Below, piece by piece: positions 5,051 to 60,400 of a DNA stretch of 64,000 bases (within the stretch, counting starts at the first letter, position 1; every line of letters starts with the position of its first letter). The stretch comes from Eledone cirrhosa (lineage: Eukaryota): assembly GCA_964016885.1 (NCBI GenBank), contig OZ024740.1, positions 77,872,001 through 77,936,000 of the forward strand, written 5' to 3'. The notes under the pieces were generated by a model. The model made no database searches, was not told the DNA's origin, and saw only the letters and a program-made list of their open reading frames with translations. The translations under genes were made by a program, and so were the position numbers.

Positions 5051-5230
5051 CATTTGTTTCAATCAACGAAATTGTCTGTTCGTAAAGTTTGTCTTTCTCA
5101 AGGATATGATGCGCCGCCTGGTCCGAGAATCGAACTCCCAACTATACAATCGTGAACCCAGTGCTCTAACCATTACACCACGCGCCTTCACACCCATACA
5201 CAAACACATACATACATATACATACATACA

Positions 5231-5838
5231 TGGTGGCTGCCAACTCGTTTTCGAGTACGGCCACCACTTTATATCCATGTAGGAGAACCCCTACCGAAGC
5301 GCTGAACGAGTGTGACTTTTTACTCCAGCCAGCGACTTGAAAACTCTGGTACAAACACTACACTTGTGACAATTATTGACACATAGTTCTGGGCCCATGG
5401 TACCATGAGACGACAAGTGCAAAGACATCCCCAGATATAAAGCAATGCCTGTGCCGTGAAGCTTTTATAGTGAGCAAAGGCACTGCACAAAGCCAGTCCC
5501 ACTCTCTTAACCAAGATGATATTTACCAAAAAGAAGAACAAGTCAACATCATTGGATACCATCAGGGTTGCAGGTGTTATATCAGAGTTTTCCTTCTCCT
5601 AGAATTCTGCCTTGACAAAGGCTAAGGGTTCATCTCTCCCGGTGATTTGGGATGGCCATTGACTCTTAAGAGCTCCTTTGCCCTTTGACAGGTTTTGTTT
5701 TTAGTCCTGCAGGATGTCGAAAGTCACCCTCCTCACCAAGAAACCTTGGTGGGGTTGCCAGTTTAGTCGCCAACGACCCGACCATGAGACAGGTTGTACT
5801 GGGATACATGTTACCAGTAGCACCAACTGGTGACCTGA
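5231..5838 (-). mobile_element. Bipartite RTE-derived non-autonomous retroposon family 1, full-length (~608 bp)
   Basis: On the minus strand it starts tcaggtcaccagttggtgctactgg, contains the RTE 5'UTR-like ctaggagaaggaaaactctg and a C2H2-finger-coding segment, and ends in the stem-loop ctcgaaaacgag then gcagccacca(tgta)n. Flanked both sides by (CATA)n. Confidence 0.85.
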
Positions 5839-5916
5839 CATACATACATACATACATACATACATACATACATACACACATACATACATACATACATACA
5901 TACATACATACACACA

Positions 5917-6524
5917 TGGTGGCTGCCAACTCGTTTTCGAGTACGACCACTACTTTATATCCATGTAGGAGAACCCCTACCGATGCGCTGAACGAGTGTG
6001 ACTTTTTAGTCCAGCCAGCGACTTGAAAACTCTGGTACAAACACTACACTTGTGACAACTATTGACACATAGTGTTGGGCCCATGGTACCATGTGACGAC
6101 AAGTGCGGAGAGATCTCCAGATATAAAGCAATGCCTGTGCCGTGAAGCTTTTATAGTGAGCAAAGGCACTGCACAAAGCCAGTCCCACTCTCTTAACCAA
6201 GATGATATTTACCAAAAAGAAGAACTAGTCAACATCATTGGATACCATCAGGGTTGCAGGTGTTATATCAGAGTTTTCCTTCTCCTAGAATTCTGCCTTG
6301 ACAAAGGCTAAGGGGTCATCTCTCCCAGTGATTTTGGATGGCCATTGACACTTAAGAGCTCCTTTGCCCTTTGACAGGTTTTGTTTTTAGTCCTGCAGGA
6401 TGTCCAAAGTCACCCTCCTCACCAAGAAACCTTGATGGGGTTGCCAGTTTAGTCGCCAACGACCCGACCATGAGACAGGTTGTACTGGGATACATGTTAC
6501 CAGTAGCACCAACTGGTGACCTGA
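5917..6524 (-). mobile_element. RTE-derived family 1, full-length copy in tandem with the previous one
   Basis: Near-identical to 5231-5838, separated by about 80 bp of (CATA)n. Confidence 0.85.
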
Positions 6525-6584
6525 CATACACACATACACACATACATACATACATACATACATACATACACACATACATACATC

Positions 6585-6680
6585 CCGATTCAAGGGATGA
6601 CAATTTCTTTTCTTTTACAACCTTGCCACCAGGAAGGTGGCCGGTCAAAAATATACTCGAAATTAAGAGAAAGAGATAAC
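6585..6680 (+). mobile_element. 3' end of R4/Dong-like lineage 2 (last codons and 3'UTR)
   Basis: cgattcaagggatgacaatttcttttcttttacaaccttgccaccaggaaggtggccggtcaaaaa-atatactc-aaattaagagaaagagata is the reverse complement of 50146-50240; flanked by (CATA)n. Confidence 0.85.
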
Positions 6681-58300: not shown

Positions 58301-59401
58301 ATATTGCCTGTGTGATAATCAAAAACTCACACCCAGGGATGTCGCTCAGCAGTATCGCAGTGAATCCATGGATGAAAAACTGCATGCTTATCAGCAAAAG
58401 ATCATGCATGCATATGTTGCCAGGAAGCTCCAGAGTGAGAGTAATATAGATAAGGAAAGTAGTCTATCTTGGACCAACAACCGCTATATTGGCTCCCACT
58501 TTGAAGGATACGCTTTTGCAATCGAAGAACAGGAGATTAACACGAAATACCTGATTCACAAAAGAGATAGGGATGCAGGCAAAACACCTAGATGTAATAA
58601 CAAGTGCAGACTCTGCAGAACTAACATCGAGGATGTCACCCATGTCATCAGCAGCTGTCCAAAGATGGCATAGCGGTACTATCTACCTATGAGGCATGAT
58701 ATAGTGGCCAAAACACTGTACAATGCAGTTCGTAAAAAAGATAGCCCCGATAATAAATACATTAAAAGCTACAGCAATGTGGAAGACATCCATGTACATA
58801 ATATGAAAGAGTACTGGTGGAATGTTCCAGTAAAAGCCCCAATAAAATGCAGGCATAACAGACCAGATATTATGATATGGGACAGGGAGAAGAAAACATG
58901 CACAGGCGTGAAAATTAGCTGCCCAGCAGATGCCAATATAATATCAAAGATTACTGAAAAGGAGAATATTTATGCAGAACGGATGAGAAATCTACAGATA
59001 CTCCACCCTGATTACACCTTCAGATTTATGCCTGTGATTATTGGGGCACTGGCGTATGTTAGTAACTGCCTCAATACAAATCTTGAGAAGCTAGGCTTCA
59101 TATGAACAGAAAGAACACAACTAGTTAGGAAATTACAGTAAAAATATGTAAAACATTCCACAAATTTTGCATCTAATAACTGCATGTACACATGTACAGA
59201 TGCAAAGCATATACACATGCATATATACAACTCAAAACATGCACATCTACACATACAATAACATCCATATCTACACATGCATGCATACATACATATCTAC
59301 CTAGTTGATGTGTAAATTCCAATGAGAGAGTCTTGTGTCTATGTTAGAAACCGACTCTCTCTCTATTGGTAAAACTTTGTGAAATTATAAAACCAGAAGA
59401 A
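55376..59401 (+). mobile_element. Near full-length R4/Dong-clade non-LTR retrotransposon (~4.0 kb) in (CATA)n
   Basis: Single ancestral ORF: N-terminal GYM.RMK..W...H.EL..FT.KQLRQQ (R4-type Myb-like), F[W>*]SKIWS, RT motifs NYRPIAC, WLDYRKAFDSVPH, GIFQGDSLS, FVDDLKLY, YRYLG, then CCHC, RHD and RPDIMIWD..KISCP..KENIY; (CATA)n at both ends. Confidence 0.95.
55489..59175 (+). pseudogene. Disrupted RT-RLE polyprotein of the R4/Dong-like element
   Basis: Segments 55489-56751, 56794-57039, 57036-58673 and 58689-59105; premature stops at 56749, 58671 and 59103, and a frameshift from the tandem duplication tattctatcg at about 56950-56975. Confidence 0.9.
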
Positions 59402-59515
59402 CATACATACATACATACATACATACATACACAGACACATACATACATACATACATACATACATACATACATACATACATACATACATACATACATACAT
59501 ACTTCCATACACACA

Positions 59516-60035
59516 TGATGGCTACACAAACTCTGCTAAGAGTATTGCAATCCCTTGTCAGATTATAGAGTTTGGTGCACTTTTAGGCTACGGCCAGCCA
59601 CACAAACCTGTAACAGATCCAGAACAAGCAATGCCTGTGCTTTGAAGATTTTTAAGTGGGGAAAGGCCTTGCACTCGACCAATCCCATTCTCTGAGCATC
59701 GAAAACACTACCCGAAAAGGAGAACTTGTCCAGATCATCGGATGCTTCCGAAGCCGCAGGTATTTTTCAGAGTTTCCCTCTTTTAGAAAGGTGTTGTGAG
59801 AACTGGAGGCCATTCACTCCCAGGTTTTAAAAAAAAGTACTATTTGGATGGCAGTTGTCTCTGCTGAGTTCCTCCGCCCTTTGTCGGGTCATGTATTTTA
59901 TCACGCAGGATGTCCAAAAATCTCCCTCCTCACCAAGCAAGGTTGGTGGGGTTGCCGGTTTAGTCACCGACGACCCGACCATGAGACAAGTTGTACTGGG
60001 TTACATGTTACCAGTAGCATTCGAGAGTGACCTGA
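59516..60035 (-). mobile_element. RTE-derived family 3, full-length
   Basis: The minus strand starts tcaggtcactctcgaatgctactggtaac and ends actcttagcagagtttgtgtagccatca; flanked by (CATA)n. Confidence 0.8.
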
Positions 60036-60065
60036 CATAACATACATACATGCATACATACATAC

Positions 60066-60400
60066 AAGTTAAATTACAGTCCATTGATGGATGTAAAAAT
60101 ATGTAAAACATTTCAGAAATTCAGCATGTAATAACTGTATATACACATGTGTAGATACAAAACATATGCACTTATACATATACAACTGAAAATATACAGA
60201 TCCACACATGCAATAACATCCATACCTGCACACACACACACACACACACACACACACACACACACACACACACACACACACACACACACACACACACACA
60301 CACACAAATATATCCAGACATATGTATTTACCTAGTTTAATCTTGTTCGTATGTTAGAAACCGACTCTGTCTCTCTTTCTCTATTTGGACAAAATTATCA
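60066..60400 (+). mobile_element. Old R4/Dong-like 3' fragment
   Basis: gtccattgatggatgtaaaaatatgtaaaacatt...tatgttagaaaccgactct matches the lineage 1 ORF end and 3'UTR. Confidence 0.7.

Follow-up and report, generated by a model that had tools for sequence, protein, structure and literature searches.

Dong-like and RTE-class retroelements share a tetranucleotide microsatellite on opposite strands in the Eledone cirrhosa genome

Retroelements in the window

The window analyzed here is a stretch of 64,000 nucleotides (C1:77872001-77936000, where C1 is contig OZ024740.1 of the GenBank assembly GCA_964016885.1) from the 3.0-Gb genome of Eledone cirrhosa, in which microsatellites are very plentiful. 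It carries copies of two classes of retroelements that share (CATA)n/(TATG)n tracts and read on opposite strands of them. The first class consists of Dong-like long interspersed elements (LINEs) with a restriction-like endonuclease (RLE), in two families denoted Dong-A and Dong-B. The second consists of short elements of three families, denoted SINE-A, SINE-B and SINE-C after the short interspersed elements (SINEs), of which SINE-A is derived from an autonomous element of the RTE clade, RTE-A. The features are as follows (positions in the window).

5231..5838, minus strand: SINE-A, full length (bipartite non-autonomous RTE-A derivative)
5839..5916, no strand: (CATA)n/(TATG)n tract separating two SINE-A copies
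5917..6524, minus strand: SINE-A, full length
6586..6678, plus strand: Dong-B 3' stub, with its 5' junction at a CATA tract
7524..7941, plus strand: SINE-B 5' part, without 3' end, preceded by a TA/TATG tract
19875..20250, minus strand: SINE-C 3' part
20251..20414, plus strand: 5'-inverted piece of the SINE-C copy at 19875..20250, the sole orientation exception
20437..20869, minus strand: SINE-A, 5'-truncated, flanked by tract on both sides
20906..22008, plus strand: Dong-A, 5'-truncated and with an internal deletion
28176..28765, minus strand: SINE-A, full length
28843..29212, minus strand: SINE-C, 5'-truncated
34083..34472, minus strand: SINE-A, 5'-truncated
34488..34686, plus strand: Dong-A, 3' untranslated region (UTR) only
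34753..35347, minus strand: SINE-A, full length
35433..36307, plus strand: Dong-A, 5'-truncated, with the CCHC and RLE frame open
41198..41715, plus strand: SINE-A within a TATG tract
50145..51007, minus strand: Dong-B, 5'-truncated (flipped cluster), with a short, degenerate 3' flank
51209..52107, minus strand: Dong-A, 5'-truncated (flipped cluster)
52130..52275, plus strand: SINE-A 3' stub (flipped cluster)
52283..52862, plus strand: SINE-A, nearly full length (flipped cluster)
53427..53831, plus strand: Dong-A, 5'-truncated
54186..54436, plus strand: older Dong-A-like fragment, 78% identical
54472..55290, plus strand: Dong-A, 5'-truncated
55377..59401, plus strand: Dong-A, nearly full length, with ~83 nt of the 5' end missing and stops breaking the frame
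56901-58670, plus strand: reverse transcriptase (RT) of the near-complete Dong-A copy, with CCHC and RLE motifs behind it
59517..60036, minus strand: SINE-B, full length
60066..60377, plus strand: older Dong-A-like fragment, 80% identical, collinear with 54186-54436

Strand-specific use of one microsatellite

The first-pass annotation of this DNA had placed the Dong-like copies on the (CATA)n strand and the RTE-derived copies on the (TATG)n strand. All 10 coordinates that it listed for the former are real element junctions on that strand, namely those of Dong-A at 20911, 34492, 35437, 51209, 53431, 54472 and 55376, of the older copy at 60066, and of Dong-B at 6586 and 50146. Likewise, 13 of the 13 RTE-derived copies (nine of family A, two of B and two of C) lie on the (TATG)n strand, apart from the one 5'-inverted family-C piece, and both classes indeed flip together at 50.1-52.9 kb.

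Beyond the window, natural copies served as references for the annotation of ~1.7 Mb of sampled loci, of which 90 were anchored on Dong-A 3' ends, 30 on SINE-A 5' ends and 50 on autonomous RTE; 80 evenly spaced 10-kb stretches (800 kb) formed a background sample. The Dong- and SINE-anchored sets were drawn from the first 52 Mb of C1 and are skewed to TATG-rich sites, so that genome-wide pattern counts were relied on where possible. Junction and island counts exclude 60 endonuclease loci. The island test for outer duplications and the count of 132 junctions were deduplicated by position; for the flank-coupling, duplication and variant/co-occurrence tests this was done only in part.

The pattern counts extend the observation to the whole genome, where orientation is far from random for either class (3,808:0 and 9,077:7). 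The Dong-A 3' end (6,136 copies by a shorter 20-mer anchor) is followed by CATACATA 3,808 times, by TATATATA six times and by TATGTATG not once. The 3' end common to RTE-A and SINE-A (28,282 copies by one exact pattern) is followed by TGTATGTA in 9,077 cases, by TATATATA in 8,135 and by TACATACA in seven, although TGTATGTA and TACATACA, being reverse complements, are equally available. Given that background DNA contains TATATATA 24 times as often as TGTATGTA, RTE-A still favors TATG ~27-fold per site. Moreover, 128 of 132 Dong-RTE junctions across a tract join elements in opposite orientation. Thus, the sharing of one repeat in opposite orientations is genome-wide, specific and far beyond chance. 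At the other end, TATGTATG precedes 2,441 of 9,684 SINE-A 5' ends, a proportion that exaggerates the degree of targeting, since one TATG unit seems to be part of the element itself (48/61).

Dong-like elements that target (CATA)n

In the near-complete Dong-A copy (55377-59401), the RT matches RVT_1 with an E value of 2.6e-24, and no match to Exo_endo_phos, the apurinic-like endonuclease (APE), was found in five frames of the Dong-like element. The solved structures closest to the RT copy are R2 proteins, and the C-terminal region of Dong-A aligns weakly to the R2 C-terminus. A CCHC knuckle, an RHD motif and PD-(D/E)xK-type RLE motifs lie C-terminal to the RT according to pattern matches. The two families share 55% protein identity.

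The CATA strand forms the 3' flank of 114 of 115 Dong-A and 23 of 26 Dong-B copies. Among the copies with a scorable 5' junction, 67 of 96 in Dong-A and 20 of 24 in Dong-B adjoin CATA, at many different truncation points, and none adjoins TATG; some of the other 5' junctions look broken by later insertions. Full-length Dong-A starts ~83 nt upstream of the start of the window copy, mostly directly behind CATA repeats, and its 5' end is conserved among full-length copies. Rfam yielded no ribozyme match at Dong or SINE 5' ends, including the HDV-like type considered for elements of the R4/Dong clade. Possible hairpins were seen by eye at conserved 5' ends (L067:199-285 and SINE-A 1-50, the latter with compensatory changes among SINE-A, B and C). 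The proposal that the Dong-like elements use (CATA)n as a specific target is therefore upheld, unlike its second half, that RTE tails seed those tracts: usually there is no tail, and the RTE class shows no side bias around Dong (see below).

The domain order (RT, CCHC knuckle, RLE motif) and the microsatellite-specific insertion are shared with Bombyx Dong, DongAg and DongBg of the R4 clade. The published accounts are cited here from excerpts of the papers concerned; in these, the target of Dong is (TAA)n (PMC3812793, PMC2887409). This target, which defines Dong in the narrow sense, was not found for Dong-A or Dong-B; TAA flanks occur only in two further Dong-like families, C and D, which coexist in this genome with the CATA-targeted ones (L186, L192, L168).

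Relatives beyond this genome come from a metagenome scan of 78 loci, with repeats scanned in all of them and ends inspected in 20. One Dong relative, L319 (1-4125), has (CATA)n on both sides and a 3' junction identical to that of Dong. Among the other four of the five closest metagenome relatives, (CTTA)n lies at both ends of L324 and at one end each of L318 and L321, and no flank is visible for L322; protein identity is 46-54% for L318, L319, L321 and L324. In a FastTree analysis, all five group with Dong-A and Dong-B with support 100, apart from eight TAA-flanked rows, and a quick IQ-TREE run without the metagenome rows likewise separates Dong-A/B from the TAA-flanked families. Both are quick trees, between which the exact position of Dong-A differs; computed without named Dong, R4 or an outgroup, they place Dong-A and Dong-B among unnamed proteins, beside TAA-flanked elements and unnamed Bombyx proteins. 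Compared with Dong, then, Dong-A and Dong-B use (CATA)n and form a separate lineage whose other members with visible flanks sit in (CATA)n or (CTTA)n. Given such distant relatives, four-base targeting looks like an old trait of the Dong-A/B lineage, to judge from flanking sequences, and not one tied to the RTE of this genome.

In the window itself, CATA units give way to CTTA units, the repeat targeted by the metagenome relatives, within the tract behind one Dong-A 3' end (36308-36386).

RTE-A and its non-autonomous derivatives

RTE-A is 4.06 kb in full length (L291, L293 and L297) and encodes an APE (Exo_endo_phos), RVT_1 and C2H2 fingers (L291, L297); the short 3' UTR and the combination of APE and RT in one element are those that the RTE clade requires. 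There are 113 exact copies of a 26-mer of the autonomous element, with flanks as for SINE-A. SINE-A comprises the first 431 and the last 181 bases of RTE-A, with its positions 1-431 and 428-608 aligning to the two RTE-A ends at 94-98%. It is thus a bipartite non-autonomous LINE and not a Pol III SINE, nor a SINE in the strict sense, because its head is none other than the 5' end of the RTE; Rfam gave no match at gathering score in the window that would point to a head derived from a small (Pol III) RNA. The earlier claim that the short elements derive from RTE accordingly holds for family A. SINE-A also contains the conserved RTE 5' UTR motif, which occurs 74 times in the supplement of PMC5786205, RTE alignments included. 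A protein search with the zinc-finger peptide of SINE-A gave no matches. Truncated SINE-A 5' ends adjoin the TATG-strand repeat in 42 of 56 cases.

SINE-B and SINE-C share their 5' part with SINE-A at 70-88%, and families B to E look related to family A; no autonomous partner of families B, C, D or E was found among the 60 endonuclease loci or other sampled DNA. Endonuclease matches to PF14529 and PF03372, considered as RTE partners, belong instead to CR1- and Tx1-like elements. An abundant RTE-like family with a (GAT)n tail was rejected as the partner of SINE-A, the true one being found among the sampled loci; TA-rich repeats often follow this (GAT)n-tailed family (L125:3900-6112, L102, L109).

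Like SINE-A, the elements RTESINE, MAR4 and Bov-A retain nothing of an RTE but its two ends, with the conserved 5' UTR motif (PMC5786205); the difference is that the copies here are largely confined to TA/TATG repeats, with a strand bias of ~1,300:1. RTE-2_OV of Octopus, compared by description only, resembles RTE-A in its endonuclease, RT and C2H2 finger beside a microsatellite (PMC9115989).

Several further features of these and other elements were recorded. 5'-inverted copies of the RTE class, reminiscent of twin priming in L1, occur in the window (19875-20414) and at L270, L301, L304 and L307. SINE-C stubs of ~40 nt share one common truncation point (an AT-rich hairpin) preceded by long T-rich filler (L003, L015, L016, L017, L033, L038, with further such stubs at L064, L083, L158, L195 and L279). 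A young CR1-like family has many intact frames of 957 aa (L218, L225 and many other matches). Finally, two satellites, one of 17 bp in ~350 copies and one of 21/63 bp over ~6.3 kb, occupy 12473-18397 and 42038-48385 of the window.

The repeat behind RTE elements: tail or target

The (TGTA)n behind the RTE class had been taken for a tail in the first-pass annotation. We find instead that the class usually adds no tail and that the 3' repeat is mostly target DNA. Of 61 full-length copies, 42 have a duplication of at least 8 bases that begins at the first base past the element (22.5 in 500 permutations, maximum 32). Informative duplications were found in 22 of 163 cases, compared with 7.9 in 60 permutations (maximum 17); they are mostly 9-16 bp long, and 21 of the 22 are preceded by TA. 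Tail-less duplications are seen at L277 (53 bp), L051, L035 and L045. Furthermore, the TATG content of the 5' and 3' flanks is coupled (rho 0.64, n=109), and no variant tells copies flanked by TA from those flanked by TGTA (none of 15 columns and none of 21 reached p<0.05, in small samples of 12 vs 40 and 18 vs 68 copies). The suggestion that RTE-derived short elements insert into existing tracts thus stands.

A simple sequence repeat (SSR) lying between two target duplications is, in the excerpts of PMC2887409, the hallmark of SSR-generating RTEs (Tay et al. 2010), and the outer-duplication test is how SSR creation was demonstrated there. In our data, exact outer duplications were found around 4 of 151 complete islands and bracketing an RTE tail in 0 of 128 RTE-containing islands, by exact matching, which would miss old cases.

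Probable independent use of pre-existing tracts, and the alternatives

The explanation that we favor, and consider probable, is that the two Dong-like families and RTE with its derivatives are independent users of pre-existing tracts, each nicking a different strand. For RTE, target-primed reverse transcription (TPRT) would start where the CATA strand is nicked at AT^A, aided by pairing with the 3' end of the RTE RNA, with (TA)n also allowed. Dong would prime from a nick on the TATG strand, probably, although less certainly, at the same TpA step. If different strands are nicked, the opposite orientation needs no cooperation between the classes, and both would crowd the same tracts because pure tracts are scarce (~40 per Mb) and the elements abundant. 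An insertion probably divides the tract that it enters into two and duplicates a few of its units, with slippage adding more, so that islands would be likely to grow. This scheme is consistent with the behavior of either class: copies of RTE-A and SINE-A are found either in (TA)n or on the TATG strand, with duplications beginning at T^A, and those of Dong are always oriented along the CATA strand, have an invariant 3' junction and very rarely occur in (TA)n.

The orientation link could conceivably be mechanical, if Dong protein or read-through transcripts carried the short elements antisense. Tail-to-tail adjacency is indeed frequent (66 Dong-RTE junctions vs 59 head-to-head) and the spacers are short. 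Such cross-mobilization is nevertheless disfavored and, in our estimation, barely credible: SINE-A has its own autonomous RTE partner with an identical flank type and is truncated at its own 5' end, and 8,135 copies are followed by (TA)n, a site that Dong does not use.

Passive accumulation, that is, wider insertion followed by survival in repeat-rich regions and by island growth through unequal crossing-over between tracts, could draw on the tandem or segmental duplicates of Dong-containing islands (L061, L162, L077/L081, L078/L082) and on the two of 10 nearby Dong-A pairs that differ by <1%. It is largely refuted, and we consider it very improbable, because it cannot yield strand biases of 9,077:7 and 3,808:0 with a fixed phase, because neighbors carry many different 5' truncation points, and because copies within 5 kb of each other are about as diverged as distant ones (4.52% vs 4.55%, 52 pairs). 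Insertions are mostly independent. The self-growing nested islands proposed earlier are thus retained as chains of mostly independent insertions, without the RTE tail as the source of tracts; clear nesting of one class inside the other is limited to two candidates, neither decisive.

A weakened version of the earlier model, in which RTE makes the target and Dong uses it, posits that the short (UGUA)n tail of RTE RNA is sometimes copied, mostly at (TA)n, and that slippage-expanded TATG then supplies much of the target of Dong. For each Dong copy, RTE lies on the 3' side only in 39 cases and on the 5' side only in 29 (p=0.27), so there is no side bias. Substitution from the column majority, at rates that may differ between regions, is 1.4% for SINE-A, 1.8% for Dong-B, 2.3% for the RTE-A open reading frame, 2.6% for Dong-A, 3.7% for SINE-C and 5.3% for SINE-B (n=4). 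By this measure, the abundant RTE family does not predate Dong-A, the RTE-A burst being of the same age or younger, although SINE-B and SINE-C do. The background 800 kb contains 32 tracts of at least 4 pure units, of which 17 adjoin an element and 10 have none within 300 bp; these ten lie mostly inside TA/CA compound repeats. Overlapping RTE loci are partly double-counted in the figures for tract abutment (17/32), side of Dong (39 vs 29) and divergence. When one adds the absence of bracketed tails in 128 islands, the 8,135 RTE-class ends without TGTA, and the single target common to Dong-A, Dong-B (only 55% identical in protein) and a metagenome relative, this maker-user relationship appears unlikely.

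Several observations nonetheless weigh against the independent use of pre-existing tracts, most of them in favor of RTE as a maker. Dong islands hold RTE approximately twice as often as the background does: an RTE-class copy is present in 39 of 58 Dong islands compared with ~5 of the 15-17 background sites without Dong (counted by hand, p ~0.01). The share of islands with RTE climbs with total repeat units (6/15, 16/20, 19/27, 15/17), and the co-occurrence may be a length effect, with long tracts being shared or having grown after insertion, in a comparison with a small background sample; it may also reflect a maker role. Where the 5' flank is TATG-poor, the 3' flank starts with TATG units in 5 of 17 copies (e.g., L141 and L305). 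Spacers of up to 24 nt account for 43 of 119 at RTE 3' ends vs 10 of 91 elsewhere (p=3e-5), with a sharp mode at ~14 nt, which we read as RTE inserting last near the end of a tract and which is compatible with target duplication; a short copied tail fits too. In the window, an older Dong copy (54186-54436, 60066-60377) appears to be split around the tract-bearing cluster 54434-60065, with an imperfect ~20-bp duplication, and the tract may here have arisen in DNA that was not repetitive (n=1). SSR generation by lepidopteran RTEs is on record in the excerpts of PMC2887409. RTE tails may play a minor part in seeding TATG units within (TA)n. Two further points concern the insertion process: duplications around Dong are no commoner than in permutations (6/126 vs 5.5), which makes the proposed position of the Dong nick a tentative one, and no empty sites were observed at L102 and L033 using public contigs, which are too short to bridge the sites. 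The lower depth of SINE-A relative to Dong-A in contigs from one other organism was given no weight.

Discussion

The nearest parallel to the sharing of one repeat by two classes is the pair SART and TRAS, which both enter the Bombyx telomeric repeat in opposite orientations (PMC10088271, in excerpt). Those are both R1-clade elements of telomeres, whereas here an RLE LINE and an APE-encoding RTE meet in a dispersed interstitial microsatellite. The T^A start of the duplications is a known RTE signature (PMC13295347): the 'Tn-TA' of RTE/Bov-B likewise denotes duplications that start at the A after T (PMC13295347, PMC6007223), and pairing of the RNA tail with the target DNA has been proposed (PMC6007223). 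RTE/Bov-B sites, by contrast, are described in the same excerpts as dispersed and seldom flanked by sequence like the 3' repeat (PMC6007223, PMC13295347), whereas here the target is a microsatellite and the tail is usually absent. RTE insertion has been called not sequence-specific (PMC2887409). Both Dong-R4 and RTE are reported to be active in Octopus (PMC9115989, PMC13282606). In the excerpted literature we found neither a CATA or CTTA target for Dong nor a microsatellite-targeted RTE, although Repbase or Dfam entries could already hold such notes.

A bolder scenario, which we advance only tentatively and do not expect to hold in full, combines these threads. There might be an undescribed Dong lineage that targets C-W-T-A repeats beyond this genome, with RTE having converged here on the same TpA on the opposite strand; duplication, together with occasional copying of RTE tails into (TA)n, would make new target, so that the islands would feed themselves. 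If true, such self-feeding islands would help explain the load of long CATA tracts in this genome.

With respect to the families themselves, (CATA)n and (CTTA)n join the targets of Dong-like RLE elements, for which the excerpted accounts give (TAA)n, and close relatives with differing four-base targets offer a natural series for the question of how RLE specificity is encoded. An RTE, from a clade usually deemed non-specific, here targets a microsatellite in a strand-specific manner, at tens of thousands of sites, and a microsatellite behind an RTE should accordingly not be assumed to be its tail. Two unrelated classes of endonucleases occupy a common niche in the genome of E. cirrhosa, in the manner of SART and TRAS.

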